From a virus: DNA of 64,000 nt. The translations under genes and the position numbers were made by a program. Below, piece by piece: positions 2,691 through 59,322 of this stretch. Where the stretch lies: IMG/VR virus record IMGVR_UViG_3300042731_004976, positions 64,001-128,000 of that record. The stretch is one strand, 5' to 3'. Position 1 is the stretch's first letter, and every line of letters starts with the position of its first letter. The notes under the pieces are model-generated. The model did no database searches. It was not told where the DNA came from and was given only the letters and a program-made list of their open reading frames with translations.

Positions 2691-3119
2691 CTAGGGCGTT
2701 GCGGACTTTTCTTTGACGTCGTCGAGCCAGTCGTCCGGAAGGAAGTTCTCGATGAAGAAGGTGTGGAGGGTCTGCTCATCGGAGATCTTTTGTCGTAGCT
2801 CCTTGTAGCCACTTATCCCCGGACCCATATCATCAAAGGCCGCCATAGTCAAGGGAGTGAACTCCCAGACCACAGGCTGCCCGTCGTCTCCGATGTTGTT
2901 CTTGTCGACGATTTGAACGCCATCCTCTGTGTCTTTGGGATCTCCGAGGATGTAGTGAGGACGTTCGGTATTCGTGACGAACTGGACACCCTTCGTCATC
3001 TCACCCGTCTCTTCGAGAGGGTACTCGACGGGTTTCACCCCCATCGCTACTGCGCTCCCATAGACGAAGTTGTGGGACTTGTCCCGGTATCGGTAGACGG
3101 CGTACGGATCCAAAGGCAT
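2691..3119 (-). CDS. hypothetical protein
   Basis: 142-aa ORF coupled (TGATG) to the large polyvalent gene. Confidence 0.7.
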   Translation of the reverse strand: MPLDPYAVYRYRDKSHNFVYGSAVAMGVKPVEYPLEETGEMTKGVQFVTNTERPHYILGDPKDTEDGVQIVDKNNIGDDGQPVVWEFTPLTMAAFDDMGPGISGYKELRQKISDEQTLHTFFIENFLPDDWLDDVKEKSATP

Positions 3120-6100: not shown

Positions 6101-7099
6101 CGGTTCGTATCCAGCCGGAGCTTTGCCCTTCCAATCGAAAACGAAATCGGGATCGGGTTCGTTGACCTCGGGCGGCGGTGGTACCGGAACGTCAGGTTCC
6201 TTGGGGGCTTCGCCGATCATGGCAAGCGTGTAGCCCTCCAGAGCCTTCTGCCACTTCTGAATGTGTGCGGCGTACGCCGACTTCCCCGCGGGCAGCGTGG
6301 CCCCTTCTGCCTTCTTCTTGTAGTGATCGACTGCAACACTCGCGAGCCCTGCTGCTGTCTTGAAGTCGCCCTCGTCTCCCGCAGTCTCCGCGTAGTAGCC
6401 AAGAGAATCCACCTGCATCGACGTAAGCTTGTTCGCGTTCTTCTTGAAGTAGTCGACGTCCTTCTTGAGGACTGCGTTTGAGAATTCGACAGCAGGCAGA
6501 GCAGGTTGGTCCCCTGCCTTTGGCGAAGGTTCCGGTTCCGGAGTTTTCGTCACGTTCGGTTCTGGCTCTGCCGCAGGTTCTGGCTTTTCCGGTTCCTTGG
6601 GCTTGGGCATCCCGAGGAGATCGAGAAGGCCGTCTACGCCTCCTGCGGACGGCGGTACTTCCTTGGGCAAAGGTTCGCCAGCAGCCAACGCTTTCGAGAA
6701 AGTGTTCTGCGGCTTCACGCCTTGCGCCTTCAGCTTCTTCGCGAGGTTCTTGAGCTTGACACTGGGAATCCATCCGGACAGCTCGGGCACCTGGTTCTGC
6801 CCAGGGAGAGGCTCCAGCTCCCCGCCGCTACCGATGTCTCCTACTGGTGGATACTCATCCGTCGTACCTTCTGGGGGATCGATGAGGTCCGGAAGGTGCT
6901 TCTCCAGATTCTTCTGCTGGATCCACACAGGCTTGGCTCCGGAAGCGTAGTTCTTCCAGACGAGGATCTTTTCGCCTTTCTTGCCGATGATCTTGACCTC
7001 GTCTAGAGTTTCCCCGACGAAGGTTCGCGAATCGAGCAAGCGTCCCTGGGATTGCCAGATACGGAAGCCTGCGGGACGTTCCTTGAGTACGGCTCCCAT
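3119..7099 (-). CDS. large polyvalent protein: Pro/Glu/Lys-rich N-terminus, HipA/PI3-4-kinase-like domain, C-terminal ART-like domain
   Basis: Kinase-like motifs GSGNFLGGAG, WMHK and DWLMSQHDSHGANF...ILSVDKEQGF. C-terminal FHG...ILSILRTG ... TELSFRKGV resembles the H-x-E ART fold. Confidence 0.65.
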   Translation of the reverse strand: MGAVLKERPAGFRIWQSQGRLLDSRTFVGETLDEVKIIGKKGEKILVWKNYASGAKPVWIQQKNLEKHLPDLIDPPEGTTDEYPPVGDIGSGGELEPLPGQNQVPELSGWIPSVKLKNLAKKLKAQGVKPQNTFSKALAAGEPLPKEVPPSAGGVDGLLDLLGMPKPKEPEKPEPAAEPEPNVTKTPEPEPSPKAGDQPALPAVEFSNAVLKKDVDYFKKNANKLTSMQVDSLGYYAETAGDEGDFKTAAGLASVAVDHYKKKAEGATLPAGKSAYAAHIQKWQKALEGYTLAMIGEAPKEPDVPVPPPPEVNEPDPDFVFDWKGKAPAGYEPPSPDEAFEFQKSLGLAKDEFVLPNDEVYKVLDLKPTEYVDPKGGFVIVASTGKQAKNKQVTPTGNTVEKTMFGKVKTTPAAKKAPPEDQVQHPEPEIFVTPSKVTKKDLPPPVAPAIPEPVKLSDQKKAALEMKTPEGLPEIDSLKMVGSGNFLGGAGDKVIYEDDKGQKWMHKAAYEKGGGKAKPYSAAAQQLWSEVARTVDDQHLVVGVTEVNKKFGTLQPLIDLDPDQPNLANVNPKTLSNEDRASITQEHVLDWLMSQHDSHGANFVRRKDGKILSVDKEQGFRFFGEDELSTEYAPNSKLYGEKPPYYNALWKGAAKGDYPIEPLVEGTKKTIEKLEKMSTAAYMKATRPYAETIFPKKIQAQNDLLKKMRKRKLDLRKDFEKLITTVYQSKENTDKGVFTFDKGWVPEGSGPKKVKKKISFKLSEADSPNSALKKEPSGWYISATGFEGLKIRPYHNPKTPTEKDDSKLTIKIPNDDLNGLDKLKKLFDELNLKPLVNPLTGKADHIEGSQYMMMFVDKKALESASTEIEEIVEPKGIADAPSTPRYFTDDHENPKATDNAKEFKQVASTTLGKWGKGFSSDGPSVEGSVMRAKRYRTASGQDYHYVHFKLRKPQWESLKDSGNEGQWKFPHASYDSENDVFVEVGGYSDSVSTRTWKIGDSEVHLATGAHKYAYMGSVYVKARPKKGETVEDVVKQSLDTMKPGLAKDVLRDPTPEEKETHRLSRILWALSPQKADALKEEDRTVENLTSMIKKIKGGKDAMKATVHEEVYPGYSAHVQKGRHKKLAGGNFRFAFHGADEGAILSILRTGPMGIHERNQHGIAKTGVSYEQDVNSGSGDGVLCHTVCASGDNTSINGYSFAKSWQVVIHPEELDRMDTYMFMKDTYGRCREDSPDWTGRKSLEARLDAQQKNAATTTELSFRKGVRPERMMRIVAPSESARKAMIKNARASGIQEVNGVPVEDFFIIEKNAGKIYEKYIKPVVETD

Positions 7100-34601: not shown

Positions 34602-34797
34602 TCTACGCGCCCGAGTACAAGCCGGAGAACCCGAACAAGTGGGAACACCTCAACCACTTCCTTGGTTCCTCTCAGTCGCACGAAGATCTGAAGCAGCGAA
34701 CGATGCTCTGTCTCATGGACATGTCGTTTCCGCGGCCTGACATCCTGGTGGTTCTGGAACGAACCAAGTGCAAGAACGGTTGGGAGGACTGAGGGGC

Positions 34798-35289
34798 ATG
34801 ATGAAGATCGTCGAGGGGTTGGAGCTGAAGCCTCAGGAGTTTTCTGCGGACGTGCGGGCTTTGCGTTACGTGCCGCTGAGCGAAGCCAAAGGAGTGGTAG
34901 TTCGCCCGGAGGGGTGGAACGCTGCCAACGACGTACCTCGTTCATGGACTCGTCCAGGGCATCTCTATCGAGGGATCACGGACGACGAGTTCCGCTTCAT
35001 CAAATCGCATGGTGTGGTCCGCAGCAACGAGAAGTGGTCGATCCGTGGCGAAGGTACGAACTTCGCTGAGGACGCAGATGAGGCCGAGAGCTACGTGAAC
35101 TACGGACGCACCGATCCTCGCAAGACCGGGAAGCCGACGTACGTCATCGAGGTGAAGAAGGACGAGAGCTTCAAGCGATGGCCAGACGGCTACTGGAAAA
35201 CTCCCGAGGTCTCCAAGAGCGCAATCACCCGCGCGTGGAAGATGGTGGGCGAGGGCGGTGAGGTCGTAGCCTACCTGATTCGGATCTGA
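34798..35289 (+). CDS. ADP-ribosyltransferase-like protein with shared N-terminal leader
   Basis: LYRG..., GTNFAEDADEAESY, YVIEV resemble ART fold strands; leader MKIVEGLELKPQEF..VRALRYVPLSE. Confidence 0.55.
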   Translation: MMKIVEGLELKPQEFSADVRALRYVPLSEAKGVVVRPEGWNAANDVPRSWTRPGHLYRGITDDEFRFIKSHGVVRSNEKWSIRGEGTNFAEDADEAESYVNYGRTDPRKTGKPTYVIEVKKDESFKRWPDGYWKTPEVSKSAITRAWKMVGEGGEVVAYLIRI

Positions 35290-35822
35290 TGATCTTCATT
35301 GCTGAGGTGAAGACCCGGAGTCCCTTTGGGTGGTGCTCGCCCTATTCGTGGGCGACTCTGTTCGAGATCGCAAACGAGGTTGGGGACTGGGTGGCGGTCC
35401 ACACCGAAGCCCCGTGGGGCGGCAGTCTGGACCTGCTCCGTACAGCCCGCCGATTGACGGACAAGCCCCTCCTCGCGAAGGGCCTCCATTCCAGCGACAT
35501 TGAGGTAAGAGAGGCTTTCGAGGCGGGGGCGGACCATGTGCTCGTCGTTGGTAGAATCCCCTCTGTGAGGCCCACAGACTGCCTCATCGAGCCGATCTCG
35601 ATACGCGACCTGCATCGGATTCCCGTGGGGTTTCGAGCGGTGTGGAATTCTCGGGATCTTCGGACAGGGGGCAGGAAATCCGAGCTGTTCGCGGACGCGC
35701 GTCGCTGGAGCGGCTGGCTGTGCCAAGCCTCGAACATCGAGGATCCTCGGGGTATCGATCCCGGGGCTGATGCTGTCCTGGTAGGAACCCATCTCCCGGC
35801 CTTTGCTGATCGAGCGAGGTAG
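35289..35822 (+). CDS. indole-3-glycerol-phosphate synthase (TrpC)-like TIM barrel, N-terminally short
   Basis: IAEVK..SP..G, VHTE..WGGS, PLLAK, GAD, LIE, NSRDL, DAVLVGT. Confidence 0.75.
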   Translation: MIFIAEVKTRSPFGWCSPYSWATLFEIANEVGDWVAVHTEAPWGGSLDLLRTARRLTDKPLLAKGLHSSDIEVREAFEAGADHVLVVGRIPSVRPTDCLIEPISIRDLHRIPVGFRAVWNSRDLRTGGRKSELFADARRWSGWLCQASNIEDPRGIDPGADAVLVGTHLPAFADRAR

Positions 35823-35836
35823 GGTAGCCTCAGGAC

Positions 35837-36649
35837 ATGAACCTGACCGAAGAGTTCCGCGAGCTTGCTGGCCTCAAGTCCCGTCTTCCGAGTCTTCAGG
35901 AGGCGCGTAGGCTTCGTGAGGCCGATGAGATCAAAGTCAACCGTTTGGAGCGGTTTGTCGATGCGACAGAGAGGGAGCTTCGGCAGTTGAAGCACTCGCT
36001 CGATCTCTACAAGAAGAACCCGCAGAAGTACGCGCCCCAGCTCAAGAACTTCAAATCTTCGGTGAACACCATCATGGGCGTAGGCCGCATGGTCATGCGA
36101 ATGATGGGGGAGGCGTCCCCAGTCTCTGAGGGGGTCAGCTCGATGTCCGTGGGGACCTGGTACAAGCAGGTGTTCCGCGGGGGTGAGGAGATCTACTTCA
36201 AGGCGAAAGAGCAGCAGAAGAACGGTGGCTGGAAGGGAATGATCGTTCAGTACGCAGACAGCGGACATCCCAAGAAGGCCAAGCAGACATCCGTTCGCTC
36301 GAACGAGTTCCGTCTCTGGACGGAGGTGCCCGCTTCCAACGTCCCCAAGGACGTGAGAGCCCGTTTGGGCGAGAGCCTGGGGGAAGCCATCGTCCAACCC
36401 TCGAAGCTGTTCAAAGCCATGCAGGACGCCGACAAAGCCCTGGTCGATGCCCGCGTCAAGGTGCGCAAGGTTCACGAGATGTTGACCGACGTCTACAACG
36501 ATGCCTCGGGAACGTCGTGGACAGATAACTATCAGGACTCAGACGTCAAGCACACGCGCGACGAGTTGTACGACTTGGATCGTTCATTCGGCTCCGCGAT
36601 GGACAGCATCGCTCGTACGAGCAAGGATCTCAAGAAGAAGACCGTCTGA
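35837..36649 (+). CDS. probable internal head protein or polyprotein
   Basis: MNLTEEFRELAGL N-terminus; domains separated by x-x-E-rich linkers (LQE, LRE, VSE, LGESLGE). Confidence 0.5.
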   Translation: MNLTEEFRELAGLKSRLPSLQEARRLREADEIKVNRLERFVDATERELRQLKHSLDLYKKNPQKYAPQLKNFKSSVNTIMGVGRMVMRMMGEASPVSEGVSSMSVGTWYKQVFRGGEEIYFKAKEQQKNGGWKGMIVQYADSGHPKKAKQTSVRSNEFRLWTEVPASNVPKDVRARLGESLGEAIVQPSKLFKAMQDADKALVDARVKVRKVHEMLTDVYNDASGTSWTDNYQDSDVKHTRDELYDLDRSFGSAMDSIARTSKDLKKKTV

Positions 36650-36653
36650 GCCC

Positions 36654-37463
36654 ATGCTCATCGTCGAAGGTTTGGAGCTACGCCCTGAGGCGTTCCGACG
36701 CCAGGTGCGGTCGCTTCGGTATCTTCCAGAGGACCGTGAGCTGAACCTTGCCCAGTGGGGGTTGGAAGGGCTCATGATGGGGAAGCCGACGAAGCTCTAT
36801 CACGGCACCACGCGCCTGTTCCGGAAGTTCGATCTGAAGCAGAGCCGAGACGAGCTGGTCAAGGACTACTACGGTAGCGGGATCTTCCTGACTCCTTCAC
36901 GTCGTGTGGCTGCCGACTACGCCTACGCGAATCGGAACAAGGGGTTCCCGAAGGACGTCATCGACAAGCTAAAGCGCAAGAACAAGAACGCGGGGGCGTT
37001 CCTGCAAGCGCTGTACGACGAGGGGGATAGAGCTTGGGACACCTATGGGGAGAAGCACGGGATCGTGACCGCTGTTGAATGGGATCAGCATCTTGGGGGG
37101 TTGGATGCGAACACTATCGGAGACGTCGCGGGGTACATTCTAGGAAGCAAGGTGAAACCCCTATCTAGCGGCGGCGGTGACTTCAGCCTGTTCAATTACA
37201 CAGCTATAGGACTGCCGGATTACGTTTACGACAACCTGGAAGAGTTGGGCATCGACTCGAAGCCATATCGTCCCAAGGTCTACACAGTGATGGCCACGGT
37301 GCGTAATCCGCTGGTCACGCAAAGCCAGGCCAAGGCACGAGGGGCGCGGGCTTCAGGCTACGATAGCGTTATCTACTACGGTCCTTTCTTGGTGCAGGAC
37401 GTTCCTGAGGTAGCCGTGTTCGATCCCAAGAAGGTTCGGATCACCAAAATCGACGTGCTGTGA
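36654..37463 (+). CDS. ART-PolyVal-type ADP-ribosyltransferase with shared leader
   Basis: LYHGT...FD...GSGIFLT....A..YA, VY.V...NPL, GYDSVI, EVAVFDP; leader MLIVEGLELRPEAF..VRSLRYLPE. Confidence 0.75.
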   Translation: MLIVEGLELRPEAFRRQVRSLRYLPEDRELNLAQWGLEGLMMGKPTKLYHGTTRLFRKFDLKQSRDELVKDYYGSGIFLTPSRRVAADYAYANRNKGFPKDVIDKLKRKNKNAGAFLQALYDEGDRAWDTYGEKHGIVTAVEWDQHLGGLDANTIGDVAGYILGSKVKPLSSGGGDFSLFNYTAIGLPDYVYDNLEELGIDSKPYRPKVYTVMATVRNPLVTQSQAKARGARASGYDSVIYYGPFLVQDVPEVAVFDPKKVRITKIDVL

Positions 37464-48083: not shown

Positions 48084-48716
48084 ATGTCGCAGCATCGACG
48101 AGTACGTGACTTTGGCACCGATCCCAAGGCAAACCTCTTCCAGGCGGCTATTCCCGGAGGCCGAGGCATCGAGGCATCAGAGGCGCGAGGTCAGGTCGAG
48201 TTGGTGAACAGCACCCAATTGCCTTTTCAAGGCAGCGATGACCCGGCTTTGGCGGCTGCTGGTGTGGTGGTCGGGGGAGAGACGAACGGGAATGACATGC
48301 GGAATGCGGGGAAGCCGCTCTTCATCGACGCAACGCTTCCCGCGGGTTGGAAGAAGGTCGGTACGGATCACGACATGTGGTCCAAGCTCGTAGACGAGAA
48401 GGGGCGTACTCGCGCCACAATGTTCTACAAGGCGGCGTTCTACGATCAGAGCGCGTTCATGGGTACGGTGGGCCGCTTCAACATTCAGCGGAAGTACATC
48501 GAGGGCAACGACAACACCTACGTGTTGGAGGTACGTGACTGCGAGGAGCCGATCTTCTCCGTCACCCGCGAGCTTCCAGGCAAGCAGAAGGAGCGCACTC
48601 GCGAGCAGTGGTCGGAGTGCGACGCGATCGAGAAGGAAGCGGCGGCTGTCTGTGAGAAGTGGCTCGTGGATCAGGGCTATCCCGAGTGGAAGGACCACTC
48701 GAAGTACTGGGACTGA
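48084..48716 (+). CDS. hypothetical protein
   Basis: LPAGWK..T.HDMWS.LVDEKGR.R..FYKAAFYD; upstream promoter TTGACT at 48024. Confidence 0.7.
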   Translation: MSQHRRVRDFGTDPKANLFQAAIPGGRGIEASEARGQVELVNSTQLPFQGSDDPALAAAGVVVGGETNGNDMRNAGKPLFIDATLPAGWKKVGTDHDMWSKLVDEKGRTRATMFYKAAFYDQSAFMGTVGRFNIQRKYIEGNDNTYVLEVRDCEEPIFSVTRELPGKQKERTREQWSECDAIEKEAAAVCEKWLVDQGYPEWKDHSKYWD

Positions 48717-48719
48717 GAC

Positions 48720-49235
48720 GTGCTCAAGTACTTGGTAGGCGACGCGACGCGGCCCGTGGGTGGTGGTGAGAAGATCATCACCCATTGTTGCAACGACCTC
48801 GGGCGTTGGGGATCGGGCTTCGTCGTGCCTCTCGGTCGGCTCTACCCGAGTGCGAAGTTCGCCTACCACCGCTGGTGTGAGGGGTTGGACGATCCTTCCT
48901 ACTCCGCGACGGGTCTCATGGGTTTGGGAGAGATCCAGTTCGTTCAGGTCGAACCGCACCTGTGGGTGGTCAACATCATCGGGCAGCATGGAGTGATCGA
49001 TCGCACCCCTGCGGGAGAGGGGCCTCCCATTCGATACGAAGCGATTCGGCAGGGGTTCGCCAAGCTACGGGGTTTCGCAACGCTGCGGAGTGCGAGCGTC
49101 CACATGCCTCGGATGGGTGCGGGACTCGCGGGAGGGCAGTGGGAAGAGATCGAGAAGCTCATCAACGCGGAGCTACTTAGCGGGGGCTTGGACGTCTTCG
49201 TTTACGACTTGCCTACGAAGGAGGCGAGCTTCTGA
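48720..49235 (+). CDS. macrodomain protein (Poa1p/DarG-like ADP-ribose processing)
   Basis: GDAT, I.HCCN..G.WG.GF, VVN..GQ, VHMPR.GAGLAGG.W. Confidence 0.9.
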   Translation: MLKYLVGDATRPVGGGEKIITHCCNDLGRWGSGFVVPLGRLYPSAKFAYHRWCEGLDDPSYSATGLMGLGEIQFVQVEPHLWVVNIIGQHGVIDRTPAGEGPPIRYEAIRQGFAKLRGFATLRSASVHMPRMGAGLAGGQWEEIEKLINAELLSGGLDVFVYDLPTKEASF

Positions 49236-49709
49236 CATGGGCTACTTCAGTAACAACGATGAAGGTTCGGCATACGAGGAACGCTACTGCTCTCGGTGCA
49301 TCCACGGCGGGGAGGACTTGGAGTGTCCTGTGATCTTCGTTCACGCGATGTACGCCTACAAGGAGTGCGGCAAGGGTTCGAACGCGGAGCGCATCCTCAA
49401 CATACTGATCCCTCGTGCGAAGAACGGTGTGGGCAACGAGCAGTGCAAGATGTTTGTCGCGCGCACGGGTTCTGAGGAGGACGAAAGCGAAGATGCTGCT
49501 GTGCTCCGGATCATCGAAACGGACAAGAGCATCGCCGAAGCGTTCGCTCGCTTCGTTGCGGAGCCTATGTCCGTCAAGGCGCATCTCACGGATTGGGAGT
49601 TCAAGCTCGCATGCGAAGCTCCGATCGTCTTCGAGAAGTACAAGGGCTTCACGTGGAAGCAGCGCCGCAGTCTTCGTCAGATCGTGCAGAAGATCATTAA
49701 AGGACAAGG

Positions 49710-50225
49710 GTGATGGTTACGGACGGTCGCGAACTGGTCGAGATTCTAGACCGAGCCTTCAAGGGTTCTGTCTCGATTCCTTCTGGGGCGGGGTTGCCGC
49801 CGCGGCACTGGAAGTTGCGTCTCGAAGCGTACATGCACGAGATCGGTCACGGGGCCGTCCTCGGTTGGAAGCGCATTCCTCGGAAGCAAGAGAACCGCTT
49901 CCAGGACTTCGAGATGTTCGGTACGGAGATCGAACAGGCCTTATGGAACCTCACGGTACGTACAGCAAACATGCATGAGGTGAGGACTATTGCCACGGTG
50001 CTCGGGCTCAACCGCAAGTACGGTTGGGGGTTGCCTGAAGCACACTCGGTCTCTGTGGGCTTGGACAGCCTGTACAAGGGAGACGACAAGGGCTCGGTCA
50101 AAAAGCTCACCAGGAGGCAGCTACAGGCTCTCGTGGAGGCGGTGCCTCAACGTTCCGTGGCGAAGTACGTGAAGCGCTCTGAGACGATCATCTCGAACGT
50201 CGTCCAGCGGATGGCGCGTCTTTGA
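49710..50225 (+). CDS. HExxH-motif protein
   Basis: MHEIGH with a downstream HE. Confidence 0.5.
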   Translation: MMVTDGRELVEILDRAFKGSVSIPSGAGLPPRHWKLRLEAYMHEIGHGAVLGWKRIPRKQENRFQDFEMFGTEIEQALWNLTVRTANMHEVRTIATVLGLNRKYGWGLPEAHSVSVGLDSLYKGDDKGSVKKLTRRQLQALVEAVPQRSVAKYVKRSETIISNVVQRMARL

Positions 50226-50426
50226 GGTACTTGTAGGCGGCGTGTAGGCGTGCGTCGCTTCGGTACTTGCGGAAGGCTCGAACCGCAGGCCACAGCTCAT
50301 CGGGGATCTCTGCATAGGGGAGCTGCTCGACACGGAGGGACTCGGCCAGCTCGTGTGCGGAGGGAGTTTTCCGCATCTGGGCTGCTCGCCAAGCTAGGGC
50401 TGGGAAAACTTCCGAATAGCGAGGCA

Positions 50427-50879
50427 TCAGAAGTCGTTCGGGCGAAGATCGCTCTCACCCGTCAGGTATTCCAGGAGATCTACTCGTCCGCCGAACCCTG
50501 CGCGGATGGTCTTCCTCTTGAGTGCGTGGTGTGCGAAGTATCGATGCCAGCCGTCGAGGATGACTGGGATTGCGTAGACACGACCGCCTCCGCAGATGCA
50601 GTCGATCGAGATGGGAGCCTCCAGGTCTTCGGGGCTTTGCATGAGGTAGCGGATGCGCGCAGCATGCGTTTCCGCAGTCCACTTCTTGGGAGCGCTGTGT
50701 CCATCCGGAGTGTAGCGGGAAGGTTCCAGGGAGGTGCCTTCTTCCACCATACTCGGGTAAAAGCCAACGCCCCAGATGTCGTCCTCATCACAAGGACCGG
50801 CGCCGAAGCATTCGTCGAGGCGAGCAAGGATGATGTCGTAGACTGGATCTACTTCACGGTCGCTTGCGGTTGGATCCAA
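50427..50879 (-). CDS. ParB/Srx-like domain protein (start uncertain)
   Basis: PISID......VILDGWHRYFA. Confidence 0.5.
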   Translation of the reverse strand: MDPTASDREVDPVYDIILARLDECFGAGPCDEDDIWGVGFYPSMVEEGTSLEPSRYTPDGHSAPKKWTAETHAARIRYLMQSPEDLEAPISIDCICGGGRVYAIPVILDGWHRYFAHHALKRKTIRAGFGGRVDLLEYLTGESDLRPNDF

Positions 50880-51115
50880 AACATCGTCGCTACCAGATAC
50901 GCTCCCTTGAAGGGCGTTGGTTTGACGATCACTAAGCGCAGTCCGTTGTGCTCTCGCCATGTCGAGTCCGTGTCGAACGTATCCTTGCCCTTCTCCAGGG
51001 CTTCCGCAACGTGGAAGTCGGTGATGCTCTGTTCCTCCGCCTTGGCTTGCGCGTGACGGGTGAGTACGATTTTGTGCCTCCCGTAGCCCGGTACGTCCTC
51101 GTAGAGGTACTTCAC
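50849..51115 (-). CDS. DUF4258-like small protein
   Basis: LTRHAQAK.....IT...V..AL..G; GTGA-coupled to the NMNAT fusion gene. Confidence 0.5.
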   Translation of the reverse strand: MKYLYEDVPGYGRHKIVLTRHAQAKAEEQSITDFHVAEALEKGKDTFDTDSTWREHNGLRLVIVKPTPFKGAYLVATMFWIQPQATVK

Positions 51116-52215
51116 GCACGCCCCTCGCGAACGTCCGTGGAGCTGATGTCCCATCGGCCTTTGACGGGGTAGAATAGGAAGTCCGAGTTCAAGGAGAGCG
51201 TCTCGTCGTTCAAGAGGTCTCGCATCGTGGTGTACCCCCGGTCCGGGATCTCTCGTCCTACGACGTAGAACCGTACTCTCTCTTCGACGAAGGGGGCCAG
51301 GTTCTCCTCGGGGGTCTTGTTGTCCCACGTCATGAGACGCAGCAGGGCGTCTGCACCGATGACGATGTGCTTCACGCCGGAGGCGATCTTGTCCTCATAG
51401 AGGGGTTGCCCTCTGGTGAAGATCACACTGTGTCCCTTGAGCATCTTCGCCCGCTGCAACATCTCGGGGACGGTGAGCGCTGGCTTGTGCGGAGGCTCTG
51501 CCTCGATGCTGAATAGCACCGGACGTCTGTGCTCTTCTTCGATCTGCTCGGCGATGCCGAAGTGCCCTTCGTGTGGCGGGTTGAACGCTCCGGGGAAGTG
51601 TGCGTACTCCGAAGCACGCCTGTGGCTCAGGTTGGTGAAGGGACGCAAGAAGAAGACGTCTCGAATGTCGATGGGGTCGCTCAGTTCGTACCAGTCGAAG
51701 ATCTCTTGGGTGATGGGCACGAGAGGAAGACCAAGGGCGTTGCGTAGCGCGTTGAGTCCTAGAAGATCGCAGGTCTCTCCCTCGTCCTCACGTCCTGTGC
51801 TCTTGCTTTTGTTCAGCACGGCGTAGAGCAAAGTGCACTTGTCTTCGCTTACCGTTGCGATGTAGACCCGGTGATCCCCCTTGTGCTCCCGGGTGGTGCC
51901 GACGACGGCCGTCATGCCTACACCGATCGTCCTCTTGTTTCCCGGTTTCCACGCACGGCTGTATGCCTCCATGGCGAGCTGGATAGCCGTGGTCTCGGTG
52001 CATGCTCGTTCGGGCTCGAACCCTAGGAAGTCCGCTGTGTCCTCCGCCGCGTAGGGGAATGCTGCGCCCACGAGGAACTTGGAGCACCCGGGGACGTCCC
52101 ACAGCAGCTTCTGGAGGCCTGCCCCGGCCCCCGTACAGACCACGTAGACCTGCGGGGGCTCGGGGAGGTCACGGATCTCCGTGACTGCGTCGATGGTGTT
52201 CACTGGACCGCTCAC
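51112..52215 (-). CDS. CinA/PncC-like domain fused to a nucleotidyltransferase (NMNAT-like)
   Basis: N-terminal TGAG....VPGCS.F...PY; C-terminal PGAFNPPHEGH (HxGH), IGAD..RL, DISSTDVR. Confidence 0.8.
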   Translation of the reverse strand: MSGPVNTIDAVTEIRDLPEPPQVYVVCTGAGAGLQKLLWDVPGCSKFLVGAAFPYAAEDTADFLGFEPERACTETTAIQLAMEAYSRAWKPGNKRTIGVGMTAVVGTTREHKGDHRVYIATVSEDKCTLLYAVLNKSKSTGREDEGETCDLLGLNALRNALGLPLVPITQEIFDWYELSDPIDIRDVFFLRPFTNLSHRRASEYAHFPGAFNPPHEGHFGIAEQIEEEHRRPVLFSIEAEPPHKPALTVPEMLQRAKMLKGHSVIFTRGQPLYEDKIASGVKHIVIGADALLRLMTWDNKTPEENLAPFVEERVRFYVVGREIPDRGYTTMRDLLNDETLSLNSDFLFYPVKGRWDISSTDVREGRA

Positions 52216-53585
52216 GCGGTCTCCTTTGCCCTCTTGCGGACGTCGTCGAAGGTGAGGGTTCGGAGGATCTTGCCGTTCTCGTAGACGACCTCCAGTAGAT
52301 CCCCGTGCTTGACCTCGGGAACGGTGCGGAGCTGCCCGCCCTCGCGAACGAGAGACATGCGACCCTTCTTGCTGACCTTGCCGTGGTCAGTAGCAGGATC
52401 CTTGAAGACCTCCACATCCTTGCCGGCAACGCGCGCCCAGGAGCACTTGAATGCGAACTTCTGGGTGTCCCGATCCATTTTCTGGAGCAGAGCCCCGCCG
52501 CATCCGAAGGCGATGTTCGAGGCCGAGTAGCCGTTGCTGAGCACGACTCGAAGGATCTCCTGGATCGAGTCCTCGTTCACGCCGTCGCCTTGGATGAGCC
52601 GGAACTCGGGAGGGAGCACCTTGTAGCCTTTGGTGTTCTTGGTCATGCCCACCTTGCGCTCCAAGATCTGAAGGCACTTGAGCACGACGTCCGGCGGGTT
52701 GCCCGAGTCCGGACGGATGATGAGCGTACCGCCCGACTCCTTGACCAGCTCACGCAGCTCTTCGCCCCAGAGATTTTCCACAGCGCTGAAGATGTCCCAC
52801 GAGTCGGACACGCAGGCGTACAGCTTACCCTCGCCTGCGTACTGCTTGACCATGTTCCGGTAGGCGTCGGCCTCGTGAGCCTTGCCCCACATGGTCATCG
52901 TGGAGTGCTCGGCCGCGGGAATCGAGAAGCCTGCCATCTCACAGTCGTAGAAGTGGTTGGCGTAGCGCACTCCTTCGACCGTGTCCGATCCCATGAAGTT
53001 CACGAGGTGGGCCATGCCTCCGATACCCGCAGCTTCCCGGGACGTCACGCCACGACCACCGAAGTCGTGCAGCTTGAAGTCGATCTCCGCGGCGGGATCG
53101 TCTGCGGACTCCACGAGAGCCTCCCAGATGATCCTTCGGATGTTGTGACTCTGCGTCGCAACCGTGATCGGGTACCAGAGGCGCACCATTTGGGTTTCGA
53201 GCCAGGACACGACCCAGAACAGCTCTGGGTCCGTGCTCTCGACGCTGAGCAGGATGTTCCGCGTGGGCACCACCAGCCCCTCGGGAACGGCGCGGATGCG
53301 TACGGGCAAGTAGCCGTTGTGCTTGGTGACGACTTTCATCCAACCCTCGCGATTGAAAGGCTCCCCGTGAGCCGCGAAGAACTCGGCCGCCTCGTTCACG
53401 TCCGCTGCGGTGATCGGCTTCGAGAGGTACTCGCGCATGAACCACTGGAGGCCGAAGAAGACGGTCTGCCCGTAGCGCCCGCCACGCGACTCGAAGTACG
53501 AGTACATCGCTTCGGTCTCCGGAGGGTACTGAAGCCAGTGGCTGGCCTTGTAGCTGTCGGTGTCGAGAATGAGGTTGAAGTCCAT
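52212..53585 (-). CDS. nadV: nicotinamide phosphoribosyltransferase
   Basis: LDTDSYKASH, LHDFG.RG, GSDT, SIPAAEHS, VSDS, IRPDSG, IQGDG, FG.GG.LLQ..DRDT..FAFK, SKKG. Confidence 0.96.
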   Translation of the reverse strand: MDFNLILDTDSYKASHWLQYPPETEAMYSYFESRGGRYGQTVFFGLQWFMREYLSKPITAADVNEAAEFFAAHGEPFNREGWMKVVTKHNGYLPVRIRAVPEGLVVPTRNILLSVESTDPELFWVVSWLETQMVRLWYPITVATQSHNIRRIIWEALVESADDPAAEIDFKLHDFGGRGVTSREAAGIGGMAHLVNFMGSDTVEGVRYANHFYDCEMAGFSIPAAEHSTMTMWGKAHEADAYRNMVKQYAGEGKLYACVSDSWDIFSAVENLWGEELRELVKESGGTLIIRPDSGNPPDVVLKCLQILERKVGMTKNTKGYKVLPPEFRLIQGDGVNEDSIQEILRVVLSNGYSASNIAFGCGGALLQKMDRDTQKFAFKCSWARVAGKDVEVFKDPATDHGKVSKKGRMSLVREGGQLRTVPEVKHGDLLEVVYENGKILRTLTFDDVRKRAKETA

Positions 53586-53598
53586 GATTCGGTTCCTT

Positions 53599-54303
53599 TC
53601 AGATCTCGAAGACGAGCCCGTTCTTCACGGCCTTGTCGTAGGCCCGCTTGTCGAAGCGGTAGAGTTGAGCGGGACGGTGACTCGTCCCCTGTTGCATCCC
53701 GTTCTCCACGAGGATGTTCATGGCGAGGATCTTCTTGCGGAAGTTCCGCTTGTCGATCTCACGCCCCAGGATCGTTTCGTACAGCTTGCGGAGCTGCCCG
53801 AGCGAGAATTCCTTCGGCAGGAGGTTGAAGCCGATCGGTTCGTACGTCAGCTTCCCCCTCAAGCGCTGTACGGCCGTGCTGAGGATCTTGTTGTGGTCGA
53901 AGGCCAGCTCGGCTTTCATCGCTTCGTCGAGGGGCATCCACTTTGCTTCGGCGGCGTCGCTGGCTCCTTCCACGAGCATGGAACGCACCAGCCCGAAGTG
54001 GGCCACGGTGATGACACGCCCCCGAGGATCTCGGTCCTTGTCGCTGAACGTGTAGAGCTGCTCCAAGTAGTCGACCGTGGCGCCGGTCTCCTCCTCCAGC
54101 TCACGACGTGCTGCGGCTTCGATGTCCGGGTCTTCGTCGATGTCTAGGAATCCGCCAGGTAGTGCCCACTGACCCTTGAAGGGCTCGCCGCCCCTCTGGA
54201 TCAACAGCACGTTCAGCGAGGGCTCTAAGTAGGACTGGTGGAGACCGAAGAGCACGATATCGGCTGTTACGCTCGGTCGCGGGTACTTGTAGGTGTGAGC
54301 CAT
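53599..54303 (-). CDS. nrtR: NrtR Nudix-related transcriptional regulator
   Basis: Nudix box WALPGG...AARRELEEETG, RDPRGR, LAFDH; C-terminal wHTH LPKEF...LYE.ILG..IDKRNFRKK...RPA.LY. Confidence 0.93.
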   Translation of the reverse strand: MAHTYKYPRPSVTADIVLFGLHQSYLEPSLNVLLIQRGGEPFKGQWALPGGFLDIDEDPDIEAAARRELEEETGATVDYLEQLYTFSDKDRDPRGRVITVAHFGLVRSMLVEGASDAAEAKWMPLDEAMKAELAFDHNKILSTAVQRLRGKLTYEPIGFNLLPKEFSLGQLRKLYETILGREIDKRNFRKKILAMNILVENGMQQGTSHRPAQLYRFDKRAYDKAVKNGLVFEI

Positions 54304-54344
54304 GGGGTAATAATCACACTAACTTAGTGTTCTGTCAACACAAA
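54302..54344 (-). promoter_or_regulatory. nrtR operon promoter overlapped by two tandem 21-bp NrtR-like boxes
   Basis: Minus strand TTTGTGT-TGACAGA-ACACTAA, G, TTAGTGT-GATTATT-ACCCCAT (both GT-N7-AC); TTGACA-17-GATTAT-6nt-ATG. Confidence 0.75.
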
Positions 54345-54469
54345 AGTTCGTGTGCTCCTAACCCTAAGTAATCATGGGTCTCTTTCGCCTCTTCCCCCAG
54401 GCAGGTCCTTCCGATACGCTCGCTGCTTCCAGGGCCCGAGAGGGCCCCCTAGAGACGAAGGAGCTGAGA

Positions 54470-55519
54470 ATGGAACAACGGACGCTGCGCCCCACGGTCC
54501 CGGCCGCGGAGGCGATTTTGGGCAAGTACTTCCCCGTGCTCGACAACGGGTTCATCGCCCTGAAGGACTACATGGGGTGCGATGAGGGGATCGAGGAGGC
54601 GGCTCGCCTCTCGTACCAAGGAGGCACGAGACAGACGAGCGAGACACGGGGGCTGGTTCGATACCTACGCCGCTTGAGGCATACGAGTCCGAGCGAGATG
54701 GCGGAGCTGAAGTTCCACGTATCTATGCCGATCTTCGTGGCGCGCCAGTGGGTCAGGCATCGTACGGCCTCCCTCAATGAAGTCAGCGCGAGGTACTCGC
54801 TGCTTCCCATGATCTTCTACACGCCGAAGAAGGAAAACTTCCTGCCGCAAGCGAAGAACAACAAGCAGGGTCGAGAGGACGGCGCCTCGTTCGAAGACGA
54901 GGGGTTGTACGAGCGTACGGTCATCGAGTGGAACAACGAGAGGAAGCGTTCGAGCGGTCTCTACGAGAACCTTGCTGCGGACGGGGTTGCGCGTGAGCTG
55001 GCTCGCATCGACTTGCCCTTGTCGACGTACACCCAGTGGTACTGGAAGGTCGACCTGCACAACCTGCTGCACTTCCTAACGTTGCGAGCCGACGAGCACG
55101 CTCAGTGGGAGATCCGTCAATACGCCAACGTCATCGTGGGCATGGTGAAGCGCCTCGCTCCCCTGACGTACCAGGCGTGGATCGACTACGAGCACATGAG
55201 CGCTCGTTTCTCCCGCATGGAGATGGAGGTGCTTCAGGAGCTGGTGTCAGTTCTCACACAGGAAGAGGATGGGCAAGCGGGTGTGGACACGGCTGCGGGG
55301 TCCCCAACGTCGGGGAACTTCATCTCGCACGAAGAACTCGTGAAGCGCATCGGTTCGAAGCGTGAAGTTCAGGAGTTTTACGCGAAGCTGACGAAGCGCT
55401 ACGTGCGTCCCGGCTTCGACATTTCGGAAGCGGATGCCAAGCCTCCGGAGTGGTTCGAGGAACGCATGGCCAACGCGACTCCGAAGATCGATGCAGCTCC
55501 CAAGGGTGTTGCTACGTGA
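54470..55519 (+). CDS. thyX: flavin-dependent thymidylate synthase
   Basis: AARLSY, HTSP.E, PIFVARQWVRHRTASLNEVSARY, ELARIDLP, LHFL.LR...HAQWEIR. Confidence 0.96.
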   Translation: MEQRTLRPTVPAAEAILGKYFPVLDNGFIALKDYMGCDEGIEEAARLSYQGGTRQTSETRGLVRYLRRLRHTSPSEMAELKFHVSMPIFVARQWVRHRTASLNEVSARYSLLPMIFYTPKKENFLPQAKNNKQGREDGASFEDEGLYERTVIEWNNERKRSSGLYENLAADGVARELARIDLPLSTYTQWYWKVDLHNLLHFLTLRADEHAQWEIRQYANVIVGMVKRLAPLTYQAWIDYEHMSARFSRMEMEVLQELVSVLTQEEDGQAGVDTAAGSPTSGNFISHEELVKRIGSKREVQEFYAKLTKRYVRPGFDISEADAKPPEWFEERMANATPKIDAAPKGVAT

Positions 55520-56028
55520 ACCCGGTTCCTACGGTGGACCTCGATATTGAGATCGTGCACATCGATGCACGCTCTCGTCAGATCACGTCGGTTCTGGCAG
55601 TCCCGCTCTACAGGAACCTTCGAGCTTTTGTGGAGCGGCAGGGCTGGCGTTTGGCGAAAGAGCAGTGGGAGGCGTACCGAGTGCTCACGGAGCACTTCTG
55701 CCTGGAACTGAATCGTACGGACGAGGGGTTCTTGTTTACAGGCGCTCCTTCTTTCACGGTGCCCGAGTTGGGGGAGGCGTTCTTCAACTACCATACGGAC
55801 AAAGCGTTCTTGGAGAGTTTCGACCCCGTGTACCTCGCTGGTGTAGGTAAGGGTATCGCGAGAGAGGTTCAGAGGGAGATCGAGCGCGTGCAGCGCACGC
55901 TCAGTCCTATCAAGGAGTACCGCCTCTTCCTGCCCCCGTTCCAGCCTCCTCTCTTGGCAGGGGACTCGTTGGACGGGCTCTGGTTGGGGAGGGAGCTGAT
56001 ACTCCAGCGAAGCCGCGAGTCCTCGTGA
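55516..56028 (+). CDS. truncated T4 gp23-type major-capsid-like protein
   Basis: IDARSRQITSVLAVPLYRNLRA...LTEHFCLELNR versus recalled gp23 IEAKSRQLKAAYSIELAQDLRA...LATEIMLEINR. Confidence 0.6.
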   Translation: MNPVPTVDLDIEIVHIDARSRQITSVLAVPLYRNLRAFVERQGWRLAKEQWEAYRVLTEHFCLELNRTDEGFLFTGAPSFTVPELGEAFFNYHTDKAFLESFDPVYLAGVGKGIAREVQREIERVQRTLSPIKEYRLFLPPFQPPLLAGDSLDGLWLGRELILQRSRESS

Positions 56029-56067
56029 TTCCTTGACAATCGCAGCCCTACCTAATAGGGTTGCCGG

Positions 56068-56373
56068 ATGGCTAAGCTGTCCGCAGAGGTTCTGGAAGAG
56101 GGTCGTGCCCTGATTCGGCAGAAGAACTTGGATGGGTTCTTGGCTTGGGTCGATCGTCAAAGGGTGGCTATCGACATGGAGGTCGTACGAGATGCGTACG
56201 AGAAGTGCTTCGAGTACGACGACGTGGATAAGGCGCTGCGCCTGTTCGAAGCCATCTTCCCGAAGGCGGATCCTGCCGCAGATCTGCTCTTAGGCTTTTC
56301 CCGTTTGGCTCTTCGGATTCTCCTGGTCTTGGGAGTAATCGGGGGTCTCATCTATTTGATCCGGAATCTCTGA
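56068..56373 (+). CDS. membrane protein (C-terminal TM), leaderless
   Basis: TTGACA-17-TAGGGT-6-ATG; hydrophobic C-terminus. Confidence 0.65.
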   Translation: MAKLSAEVLEEGRALIRQKNLDGFLAWVDRQRVAIDMEVVRDAYEKCFEYDDVDKALRLFEAIFPKADPAADLLLGFSRLALRILLVLGVIGGLIYLIRNL

Positions 56374-56502
56374 TGTCTCGTAACCTGGGTCGCCGAGACT
56401 GCTACTTCTGCGGCGGGGAAGTGATCCTCGTCGAGACTTGGCGTACGCTCGGTGAGCGGGAAGCGAACGAGCGTTACGGACACCTGCTGGAGGCTGCCGC
56501 CG

Positions 56503-57240
56503 ATGCCTCTTAGTCGCGTCACTCTTACCGGGGTCGACGAGAAGACGAGCCCCGAGGAGCTGCTCAAGCTTTCTGCGCGCTACCCGTTCGCTGAGTGGGG
56601 CGTGCTGTTCTCCCCGAAGAGACAGGGAGAGGAGCCGCGCTACCCACCGAAGTGGTGGCTGGAGCAGCTCTACGAAGTGGTCGTGCTCAAGGGAGTCAAG
56701 GGCTACTCGTTCGCCGCGCATCTGTGTGGAAAGCACACGCGCGACGTCGTGCAGTACGGCAACCTGAATTGGGTCCACCCGATCTTCGAGCGTGTTCAGC
56801 TCAATGGCGTGAGTGCTTACTCCACCTTGATGGAGAACATGAGGTGGCCCGCAAGCGGCTTGGAGGTCATTCTCCAGATCGGGAAAAAGGCTAGCTTGGA
56901 AGAGGTAGCCAAGTTCTATCGGATGCTGCCCTTTATGGACCTGGCAGGCTTGTGGGATCCTTCGGGAGGTAAGGGCATCCGCACCAAGAAGTTCCCCGAC
57001 GCCCCTACGCTTCCGCGAGGACCGAACGAAACGGTTACGCTGCGCATCGGTTATGCGGGAGGGATCTCTCCGGAGAACATCGAAGAGGTGTTGGGCGCGC
57101 TCAAGGATAAGCAGCACGTCTACTGGATCGACATGGAAACGGGTGTACGTACCGACGACTGGTTCGACGTGGAGAAAGTGGAGGAGGTCTTGCAGAAGGC
57201 CGAGCCCTTCGTCGACTCCCGATTCCGGAGGAGCGCGTGA
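56503..57240 (+). CDS. phosphoribosylanthranilate isomerase (TrpF)-like TIM barrel
   Basis: TLTG.D, RVQLN, LWDPSGG.G, GYAGGISPENI, WIDMETGVR. Confidence 0.7.
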   Translation: MPLSRVTLTGVDEKTSPEELLKLSARYPFAEWGVLFSPKRQGEEPRYPPKWWLEQLYEVVVLKGVKGYSFAAHLCGKHTRDVVQYGNLNWVHPIFERVQLNGVSAYSTLMENMRWPASGLEVILQIGKKASLEEVAKFYRMLPFMDLAGLWDPSGGKGIRTKKFPDAPTLPRGPNETVTLRIGYAGGISPENIEEVLGALKDKQHVYWIDMETGVRTDDWFDVEKVEEVLQKAEPFVDSRFRRSA

Positions 57241-57499
57241 CCATCATCAATCTCGACTACGGCGGTTGGTCCCGAGAGGATTGGGAGCGCTCCCTCCCCA
57301 AGCTGACTCCAGGCAAAGTCTGCGTTGTTCCGATGCGGCACCCCGACAACGACGATACGTGGGGTGTGGGTATCTACGACCCGTACAAGATCGAAGGTAC
57401 CCGTGGAAAGGGACATCGCCTTCGAGGCATGCTCAAGGGGGTCAAGGTTACGACCTTCGGGGAAGCCGAAGCCGCAGTAGCTGCGTTGCGAGGAGAAGC

Positions 57500-58111
57500 A
57501 TGAGCGTCACAGGAGACATGCTGGCTACGGCGGATGCGGAAGCCTCGTACTACAAGGCGGTCGCTATTGATCTTCAGCGTCGCTTGACGGTTCTTCTAGC
57601 TGTTACCCGAGATGCGAGACAAGCCGCGGATCTTCCCTTGGACCTGGGTCCTCGGTTGCAGGACGCTATTCAGAAGGCCGAAGAGAGCTACACGGAGCCC
57701 GACGGCCCGGCGCGCTCGTACTTGAGAGGCACGCGCTTCACCGTCGAGCAGCTCATAGCCGAGATGGACTTGGGAGGGTCTCTCGGTCTGGGTCAGTCCT
57801 TCGTCGAAGTGTGCAACGAGTTCGACCTGGACGCACAGGTCGCTGCCGGAGCCCTCGTGGAGCACTACGCTTCAATGGAGGAGTTGAAGGCTGCGCGTCA
57901 GAAGCGGCTTGCGCTCCTGAACGATAGGATCGACGAGGAGTATGCCAAAGAGCCCAGGGACGAGGCCAAGATCGATTCACTACGGCGCGAAGCAGCCGAC
58001 CTCATTCGAGTGCTTTCGGAGGACGAGTTGGCTCCTATGAAGGAGCGCTTTGCTCGTCTCAAGCAGATCCTCGATGAGGGGCTTCCCAAGGAGCACCTCG
58101 CTGGAGACTAG
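57500..58111 (+). CDS. DUF433-like domain protein
   Basis: LRGTRFTVEQLI......EV..EF.L. Confidence 0.5.
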   Translation: MSVTGDMLATADAEASYYKAVAIDLQRRLTVLLAVTRDARQAADLPLDLGPRLQDAIQKAEESYTEPDGPARSYLRGTRFTVEQLIAEMDLGGSLGLGQSFVEVCNEFDLDAQVAAGALVEHYASMEELKAARQKRLALLNDRIDEEYAKEPRDEAKIDSLRREAADLIRVLSEDELAPMKERFARLKQILDEGLPKEHLAGD

Positions 58112-58497
58112 TGATGGAGATCTGCAAGAAGTGCGGCAAGCGTCCGGTAGGTTTAGGTTTGGCTTCCCTCGCGAAGCGCTGTGCCGAGTGCTATGCGGGA
58201 GCGAAGGAGGGCCTCGTCATGGTTTGCTTCGAGGGCGACGTGTCCGTACTCGATCAGATTCGTTCGAGCGGGCGGCGAGGTATCCTTCGATGACGACCGC
58301 GGAGATACGAGGGTTCTTCGATAGGATTCGGAAGAAGTGGCCTCCCGAAGAATTCGATCTGACAATCATCGGTCCTCGTACCGATGGTGGCTACGTCGTC
58401 ACTATCCGGCGTACGCGCAGTTTCGCAGATATACATCGATTGGAGGCTTCTAGCTATCGGGGCGTCTTGCTGAAAGCGCTGGGTGCTTCTGGAGGGT

Positions 58498-59322
58498 ATG
58501 ATCGTGCCTAAGCGGGTCGTTGTAGTCGTCAAACGCAGCTCGTGGTCTCAGCGTGTGTCCTCCGGGGAACCACTTCCGGCCGGTTGGAAGCGTAAGGCGT
58601 TAGCAAGCCACAAGCAGCAGCAGAGGATCAGAGATCGAGTCCTTGACCTGATCCGTGGCTTTGGTGTGAAGCCTTGGATCGTTGAAGGCGCAGAGACTGC
58701 TTTCAACGCGCGAGGTGCGGACCTTGTGGTGTCTGTTGGAGGTGACGGTACTTTGCTTTCAGCGAGCCACTACGTTGGCAAGGAACCATTGCTCGGCATC
58801 AACAACGACCCGGGACGGAGCGAGGGACACTTCTGTGTCGATACCAGCGATGACCTCAGCCGCACGTTGGAGCAGGCGTTGAAAGATCCTTGCACGCACA
58901 GTGTGACTCGCATGCGTGTCTCCGTAGGAAGACGGGTGGTGGCAGATCGAGTTCTCAATGAAGCTCTCTTCAGCCACACGTGTCCCGCAGCCATGACGCG
59001 CTTCCAACTCGGGAGCTACAAGTACGCTTGTTCTGGGGTGTGGGTAGGAACGGGTGCCGGCTCTACGGGTGCGCTGGCCTCTGCCGGGGGCGAGGCGATG
59101 CCGTTGTCTGCACACAAGCTGCAAGCCGTCATTCGAGAACCCTTCAAGGAATACGATGGCAACGTCATCCGCTACCAGAGTCGATCGATTCGTCTCACGA
59201 GCCTTACTGACGATGCGACACTCTACCTGGACGGACCGTTCCTCCGCGTACCTGTGGGTCTGGAAGACGTCGTCGTGTTCGATCGATCTCCGTCTCCTCT
59301 GAACCTGGTGATGAACCCATGA
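58498..59322 (+). CDS. nadK: NAD(+) kinase
   Basis: VSVGGDGTLL, LGIN..P..S.G.F, LNE, GV.VGTG.GST..LASAGG, LDG. Confidence 0.9.
   Translation: MIVPKRVVVVVKRSSWSQRVSSGEPLPAGWKRKALASHKQQQRIRDRVLDLIRGFGVKPWIVEGAETAFNARGADLVVSVGGDGTLLSASHYVGKEPLLGINNDPGRSEGHFCVDTSDDLSRTLEQALKDPCTHSVTRMRVSVGRRVVADRVLNEALFSHTCPAAMTRFQLGSYKYACSGVWVGTGAGSTGALASAGGEAMPLSAHKLQAVIREPFKEYDGNVIRYQSRSIRLTSLTDDATLYLDGPFLRVPVGLEDVVVFDRSPSPLNLVMNP

Follow-up and report, generated by a model that had tools for sequence, protein, structure and literature searches.

The phage pathway NARP2, which consists of a nicotinamide phosphoribosyltransferase (Nampt) and a nicotinamide mononucleotide (NMN) adenylyltransferase (Nmnat), has a broad spectrum and counters the defence systems Thoeris, DSR and SIR2-HerA, which deplete nicotinamide adenine dinucleotide (NAD+) (Osterman et al., bioRxiv 10.1101/2024.02.11.579819). 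The same study reported that NARP2 overproduces NAD+ even when no defence system is present, that it consumes phosphoribosyl pyrophosphate (PRPP), and that it could not be cloned in E. coli through toxicity. In bacteria, the NrtR regulons of S. oneidensis (nrtR-prs-nadV) and Synechocystis (nadM-nadV) place a repressor made of a Nudix and a winged-helix domain beside nadV (PMC2330246; 3gz5). A 2022 survey of viral NAD and ADP-ribose (ADPR) systems records NadV only together with NadM or NadR; NrtR comes up there for bacterial systems alone (PMC9503650). In this study, we have analyzed a stretch of 64,000 nucleotides (the window), bases 64001-128000 of the 167,992-bp IMG/VR record IMGVR_UViG_3300042731_004976, which holds an operon of three genes: nrtR, a nicotinamide phosphoribosyltransferase gene (NAMPT) and a gene for a CinA-like/NadD-like fusion protein. 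We read it as a bacterial-type, NrtR-controlled nicotinamide-salvage operon on a T4-like phage, that is, an autoregulated variant of NARP2 that would be switchable and not always on, and we give this reading a probability of about 60%.

The comparison with NARP2 of Vibrio phage KVP40 (NadV/NatV) sets out what is shared and what is not. In both, a phage NAMPT is followed by an NMN adenylyltransferase (NMNAT), and the expected chemistry runs from nicotinamide and PRPP to NMN and then NAD+; as in NARP2, phage-encoded Nampt and Nmnat stand in one genome, the latter presumably with a preference for NMN over nicotinate mononucleotide (NaMN). The adenylyltransferase is however NadD-like and fused to a domain of the PncC fold, instead of NadM-Nudix (NatV) or NadR, and the locus has its own NrtR and predicted operators, whereas the KVP40 type has been described as running regardless of defence. 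Since no Prs/Adps-like gene was found in the phage genome, the pathway is not NARP1. Compared with the bacterial NrtR regulons, palindromic operators with a GT-N7-AC core stand in tandem over the promoter in both (PMC2330246), but here a T4-like phage of lytic type carries the operon, the Nudix box is complete, and the partners are NAMPT and the fusion in place of prs or nadM. The chemistry and the logic of NrtR are known; the new element is the combination of an NrtR-gated NARP2 on a phage with a NadD-like/PncC-like fusion as the adenylyltransferase. A full-text literature search found no paper describing a phage NrtR or a phage NrtR gating NARP2, and the paper on NARP3 does not describe one either.

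Repressor-linked NAD salvage is recurrent in large phages, where it is unannotated. The cultured jumbo phage Bacillus phage G (JN638751.1, 200123-204125; locus L050) encodes in gp273 a homologue of NrtR over its full length (38% identity, 91% coverage), which bears only the annotation NUDIX hydrolase and is followed closely by gp275 (isochorismatase/PncA-like) and gp277 (nicotinate phosphoribosyltransferase). That locus represents the PncA/PncB nicotinate route and not NAMPT, and the GTGT-N7-ACAC site described below is absent from it. Myxococcus phage Mx1 (L001; OR576727.2, 118-135 kb) provides the best phage match to the NAMPT (56% identity) and carries NAMPT, a separate NMNAT and a macrodomain in a stretch of about 8 kb flanked by baseplate genes; its annotation includes no NrtR, and the GTGT-N7-ACAC site was not found in the Mx1 locus. 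Current surveys of viral NAD systems do not list NrtR homologues next to the NAD-salvage genes of jumbo phages, that of Bacillus phage G among them.

The operon and its predicted operators

The record has a CheckV completeness of about 80%, carries a gene for a major capsid protein of T4 type (Pfam Gp23, 241 bits) and has a G+C content of 57-62% in the window, in which no tRNA genes were found. At the DNA level no close relative was present among 50,697 GenBank phage records (megablast of the operon gave no match). We read the record as viral and the genome carrying the operon as that of a large T4-like phage of lytic type. We computed the identities of the genes, the layout of the operon, the match to a promoter and the conservation and placement of operators, and compared the window with related loci (labelled L with a number). 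NrtR homologues were taken from 14 IMG/VR contigs, mostly of 100-500 kb.

The first-pass annotation had proposed an nrtR-nadV(NAMPT)-CinA/NMNAT operon, and this is borne out by Pfam, NCBIfam, PDB and fold matches and by the compact order of the three genes on the minus strand. The first gene, nrtR (53599-54303), encodes a Nudix-like domain and an NrtR winged-helix domain. The second, NAMPT (NadV/Nampt; 52212-53585), has the Pfam domains NAMPT_N and NAPRTase and scores 622 bits against NCBIfam PRK09198, for which the cut-off is 405. The third (51112-52215) encodes the CinA/PncC-like and NadD-like NMN/NaMN adenylyltransferase fusion, recognized by Pfam, by motifs and by a structural model searched with Foldseek. 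A Shine-Dalgarno-like AAGGAA, 13 nt past the nrtR stop, precedes NAMPT, and the GTG start codon of the fusion, behind AAGGAG, overlaps the NAMPT stop (GTGA). The three genes form a tight operon.

Near the operon, a strong match to a sigma70-like promoter occurs only in the 70-bp intergenic leader between nrtR and thyX (54310-54338, minus strand): TTGACA, a 17-nt spacer and TG-n-GATTAT, with 10 of 12 matches and an extended -10. Because the end of the -10 element lies only 6-7 nt from the nrtR ATG and a Shine-Dalgarno sequence is absent before nrtR, the transcript is probably leaderless at this gene. Allowing one mismatch, we found three tandem sites of the pattern G(T/G)GT-N7-AC(A/C)C, spaced by 22-23 bp. 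Site A (54305-54319, GGGTAATAATCACAC on the plus strand) lies at -16 relative to the start of nrtR and overlaps the -10 element as well as the point where transcription begins. Site B (54327-54341, GTGTTCTGTCAACAC), at -38, overlaps the -35 element and is the core of a 21-bp palindrome (54324-54344, TTAGTGTT-N5-AACACAAA) found by a script search, and site C (54350-54364, GTGTGCTCCTAACCC) lies on the upstream flank, 10 nt before the thyX ATG. The same search returned a perfect 7+1+7 palindrome at 54316-54330, which arises from the adjoining half-sites of two neighbouring operators. Most NrtR operators have a GT-N7-AC core (PMC2330246), and this published core is also that of the predicted phage operators (site B, within the 54324-54344 palindrome). 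The operator region that had been proposed at 54302-54344 is thus real, and with three tandem sites it reaches on to 54364.

The comparison with other loci supports the predicted binding of NrtR to its own promoter. Among the 14 IMG/VR contigs, NAMPT lies within a few kb downstream of nrtR in eight, with the full three-gene order in L005 and L011, and overall the identical operon is present in the phage contigs L005, L011, L048 and L054. An operon of these three genes, in unchanged order, was also found among non-phage genes in a 2.75-Mb bacterial contig (L047; ENA ERZ26871378), where NAMPT is 70% identical to that of our phage (above any phage copy), NrtR 55% and the fusion 41%. Where the phage has three sites, this cellular operon has two, both exact GTGT-N7-ACAC matches, at -39 and -16 relative to nrtR. 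In L054, GGGT-N7-ACAC occurs at -38 and -16, and other sites upstream of nrtR are at -17 in L052, -25 in L004 and -80 in L016, so that the positions of site A (-16/-17) and site B (-38/-39) recur in L047 and L054, and that of site A also in L052. In L012 (the LR756504 locus) and L014, a site is placed between nrtR and the downstream Nudix/NAMPT genes. Of ten exact GTGT-N7-ACAC sequences in 211 kb of loci, six fall within 90 nt upstream of nrtR starts (1,673 nt in all), as against 0.03 expected (Poisson P about 1e-12). The sites are position-conserved in phage and bacterial copies, a strong phylogenetic footprint that predicts them to be the operator of this NrtR clade. As the same operon with sites in the same register stands in the bacterial contig and in phage contigs, the comparison indicates that operon, regulator and operators form a single unit, which was inherited from bacteria or is shared with them.

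Two related loci carry variant modules (L052:36-5110 and L053:1-5128), in which the fusion comes after nrtR or NAMPT, an unknown gene, an adenylosuccinate synthetase gene and a protein-kinase-like gene, in this order. On the other side of the leader, divergent from nrtR, lies thyX (54374-55519, plus strand), which encodes a flavin-dependent thymidylate synthase (Pfam Thy1, 6.5e-51). ThyX consumes NAD(P)H, and its gene could share the third operator, site C. The divergent arrangement recurs in L054, the closest related contig (thyX at L054:2764-3783, minus strand), where the sites adjoin nrtR and lie more than 100 nt from thyX.

The regulator and the fused adenylyltransferase

The nrtR product matches Pfam NUDIX (2.6e-22, 79.7 bits) and NrtR_WHD (3e-27, 95 bits with a cut-off of 27), both scores exceeding the Pfam cut-offs, and scores 188 bits against the NCBIfam NtrR model, under the equivalog cut-off of 400. 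Full-length PDB alignments were obtained with S. oneidensis NrtR (SoNrtR, 3gz5; 8e-37, about 37% identity) and with the AraR of B. thetaiotaomicron (BtAraR, 5bs6; 1e-39). With this Nudix-like plus winged-helix architecture we assign the protein to the NrtR family. SoNrtR contacts ADPR through R41, N43, K76 and R98 (PMC4666351); in the 3gz5 alignment (chain offset +3), R41 and R98 are kept in the phage protein, N43 is replaced by Gly and K76 by Glu. The pocket-filling substitutions of the arabinose-sensing AraR are absent (alignment read with PMC4666351). The Nudix box is intact (G-x5-E-x9-RELEEETG, with all glutamates present), unlike the mostly degenerate boxes of characterized NrtRs (PMC4666351), and its spacing of x9, not x7, is of the NrtR type and is the same in the inactive SoNrtR. 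With a complete box, the phage NrtR may hydrolyse ADPR besides sensing it. A second NUDIX-domain gene (60 bits) is present in the same phage genome outside the window (G000:C1:50175-50522, plus strand).

The fusion protein has 367 residues. Its N-terminal half gives a weak Pfam match to CinA (1.3e-5, 25.3 bits, cut-off 23.5) and the protein also matches CTP_transf_like (4.6e-9), while the C-terminal half has PHEGH and ISSTDVR, two signatures of NadD/NMNAT enzymes, and matches the NadD profile. An AlphaFold2 model built from an alignment of 32 sequences reached a mean predicted local distance difference test (pLDDT) of 90.6, and Foldseek assigned one half of it to the CinA/PncC fold and the other to the NadD fold; the N-terminal matches (6mr3, 2a9s, 5kvk, 4ct8) had E values of about 1e-5 to 1e-6 and template modelling scores of up to 0.74 on the target. 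Phmmer searches of the PDB with the fusion, or with its N-terminal domain alone, returned nothing or noise only and were uninformative, so the identity of the two domains comes from the profile and fold searches.

The N-terminal domain has the same fold as the PncC/CinA C-terminal NMN deamidase (PF02464; A. tumefaciens 2A9S, E. coli PncC), and at the positions of its phosphate-binding Gly/Ser and Tyr the aligned motifs of the fusion family look kept (G43, S45 and Y55 invariant). What distinguishes it from PncC is the catalytic dyad, Ser31/Lys63 in AtCinA, which is needed for deamidation (PMC5384747). In hhalign comparisons with E. coli PncC, of low probability (below 10%), the blocks ESCTGG and YSNEAK align with (V/A)-TGAGAG and YAAEDT in the fusion, and the consensus of 32 fusion homologues has neither Ser nor Lys at the dyad blocks. 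Based on these replacements and on the family consensus, we judge the dyad to be absent. A route via NaMN, in which the CinA-like domain would deamidate NMN before the NadD-like domain acts, is therefore less likely, and the PncC-like domain more likely binds or hands over a mononucleotide than deamidates it. The family of this domain has its own invariant residues, W39, H111, G113, K136 and R142, together with an EHRGDHRV motif (fusion residues 98-116 and 136-142). These do not coincide with the catalytic residues of PncC and may point to another ligand site or another activity.

More than 350 homologues of the fusion were found in metagenomes and one in GenBank phages, and the family appears to occur mostly on large metagenomic contigs of viral size. 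In cellular genomes, a scan of GTDB gave at least two to three full-length relatives among the matches listed. This family, an NMNAT type, is likewise absent from current surveys of viral NAD systems.

A proposed switchable pathway and its alternatives

In the mechanism that we propose, host sigma70 RNA polymerase would start at the strong, early-type promoter and produce the probably leaderless nrtR-NAMPT-NMNAT transcript. NAMPT would convert nicotinamide and PRPP into NMN, which the NadD-like domain of the fusion would adenylylate to NAD+, with the PncC-like domain, its fold kept without the deamidase dyad, serving more likely as a binding or hand-over site than as a deamidase. Once NrtR accumulates, its dimers on the three tandem operators, over the -35 and -10 elements and the start site, would turn the operon off; if the host has an NrtR of like specificity, repression could set in from the first minute. 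A ligand that reports NAD+ breakdown, most likely ADPR, would free NrtR from the operators, and NAD+ would be rebuilt at the time it is being cleaved, which would avoid the PRPP cost and the NAD+ overproduction of a constitutive NARP2. The reported overproduction, PRPP use and toxicity in E. coli offer a selective reason for gating the pathway. From the computed features we infer DNA binding, ligand, timing, the preference of the transferase for NMN and the anti-defence role.

The first-pass annotation had described a NARP2 regulated by an ADPR-sensing NrtR. The pair of NAMPT and NMNAT with an NrtR-family regulator and predicted operators has held up, while ADPR is a plausible inducer. In its most specific form the proposal says that ADPR from host TIR- or SIR2-type NADases lifts the phage or the host NrtR off the three operators, that costly NAD+ rebuilding is on only when a defence fires, and that the NMNAT is a NadD-like domain joined to a disarmed PncC-like domain; we hold this form tentatively, at somewhat less than even odds. 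If true, the cost of NARP2 would be paid only when needed and counter-defence would be regulated by a product of the defence itself, with a compact part made of a 70-bp operator region and one repressor.

Several observations weigh against a switchable NARP2. The repressor is encoded in its own operon, and in a host without NrtR the operon fires at infection whatever the defence. The ligand is not readable from sequence: members of the family sense ADPR, NAD (NdnR) or arabinose (AraR), AraR is the top PDB match, two of the four ADPR contacts checked are changed, and with its intact Nudix box the phage NrtR may destroy ADPR. Furthermore, the motif was first defined on this window (when the window is excluded, five upstream sites remain), and a GTGT-N7-ACAC site was not found upstream of nrtR in L005-L008, L011 and L048. 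In some clades a different motif is probably in use, or transcription runs in from genes upstream.

The alternatives differ in what they ask of NrtR. The operon could have been captured whole from a bacterium to top up NAD+ for the needs of the phage itself (ARTs, that is ADP-ribosyltransferases, NAD-dependent ligase, and the NAD(P)H used by ThyX), NrtR then acting in plain negative feedback unrelated to NADase defences. The cellular context of the same operon and operators on L047 and the position of thyX next to nrtR in both the window and L054 fit such a role, and KVP40-type salvage was itself first read as metabolic support. ADPR is however the best-known ligand of the NrtR family and a direct product of NADases. 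NARP2 genes have, moreover, been shown to counter Thoeris, DSR and SIR2-HerA (bioRxiv 10.1101/2024.02.11.579819), and we consider a purely metabolic role somewhat unlikely, although the two roles are not mutually exclusive. More doubtful is that NrtR senses NAD+ as a co-repressor, as NdnR of C. glutamicum does, or another NAD metabolite, ADPR not being the inducer: the family has an NAD-responsive member (PMC4666351) and the changes at N43 and K76 would fit, but R41 and R98 are kept and the intact Nudix box resembles that of ADPR pyrophosphatases such as NadM-Nudix (NCBIfam matches). The complete set of Nudix glutamates, where characterized NrtRs are mostly degenerate (PMC4666351), could also mean that the protein is mainly an ADPR pyrophosphatase, like the Nudix half of KVP40 NatV, which directs ribose-5-phosphate towards PRPP, and that its DNA binding is vestigial. 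The winged-helix score far above its cut-off, the position-conserved operators in bacterial and phage copies and the NrtR-type x9 spacing, found in the inactive SoNrtR too, make this the least probable of the readings considered.

Only slightly less improbable is the wide circuit put forward in the first-pass annotation, in which phage ARTs write ADPR and a macrodomain erases it, NrtR responds to the ADPR set free, NAD+ is recycled by way of the operon, and a NAD kinase extends the cycle to NADP, all in coordination. Apart from two of the ARTs, all these gene types do occur in one genome; the three other viral contigs with the NAD-kinase-like gene, all from IMG/VR, carry NrtR too, and Myxococcus phage Mx1 has its NAMPT, NMNAT and macrodomain close together. 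But no operator-like site (with at most one mismatch) was found upstream of the macrodomain, NAD-kinase-like or ART genes, and apart from that at nrtR the 168-kb genome has no tandem cluster of operators. A lone exact site at 56724 lies inside an open reading frame (ORF) and is at chance level, and a genome-wide search found no regulon of further NrtR sites that would tie in these or other genes. The macrodomain and NAD-kinase-like genes and their neighbouring ORFs show no synteny in the flanks of more than 30 related loci. Ten other viral records with NrtR, of which four are complete, lack the NAD-kinase-like gene; it looks like a lineage-specific gene whose co-occurrence with NrtR reflects shared ancestry. 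With two ARTs unconfirmed as well, the circuit is not supported: the macrodomain, NAD-kinase-like and ART genes are separate accessory genes of NAD and ADPR biology, and their joining in a common circuit is speculation.

Accessory genes of NAD and ADP-ribose biology

As individual genes, most of these had been named correctly. The macrodomain protein (48720-49235, plus strand; PHROG 335) belongs to the SCO6735/BT1257-like class: phmmer matched it over its full length to solved macrodomains, including SCO6735 (2afc 6e-42, 2fg1 1.4e-41, 5e3b 6.8e-41), and to the ALC1 macro domain at about 1e-12, with no Pfam match at E up to 1. The proposed NAD kinase (58483-59322, plus strand) is supported as a divergent NAD-kinase-like protein, with a Pfam score of 29 bits and the motifs GGDG, NE and GSTxxxxSAGG present as VGGDGT, LNEALF and GTGAGSTGALASAGG, invariant in four homologues. 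Its model has a pLDDT of 65 and the two-domain fold, and the Foldseek matches down to rank 50 are NAD/NADH kinases (E down to 2e-14) except for one "putative kinase" (2an1). It matches 16 NCBIfam NAD-kinase models, and as all equivalog scores are far under their cut-offs, the phosphorylation of NAD+ to NADP+ is a putative activity. No homologue was found in GenBank phages (about 50,000 records), and this phage gene too is missing from viral NAD surveys. Of the three ARTs that had been claimed, the one at 36501-37463 (plus strand) matches ART-PolyVal in Pfam (9.6e-10), the only such match in the genome; the ORFs at 3119-7099 and 34768-35289 gave no ART signal in sequence searches of Pfam, PHROGs or the PDB.

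Directly upstream of the macrodomain gene, an ORF of 210 amino acids (48084-48716, plus strand) ends 4 nt before it and is probably co-transcribed with it. This ORF had no match in Pfam, PHROGs or the ESM Atlas, where its model is poor (pLDDT 0.52), and 57053-58111 and other neighbouring ORFs likewise returned nothing in PHROGs or the ESM Atlas. Finally, weak Pfam matches to TIM-barrel families of the tryptophan pathway, PRAI (27.1 bits against a cut-off of 22.7) and IGPS (24.9 bits, where the cut-off of 27 is not reached), were observed in the window at 56452-57240 and 35289-35822 (both plus strand), and matches of this type are unusual in phage.

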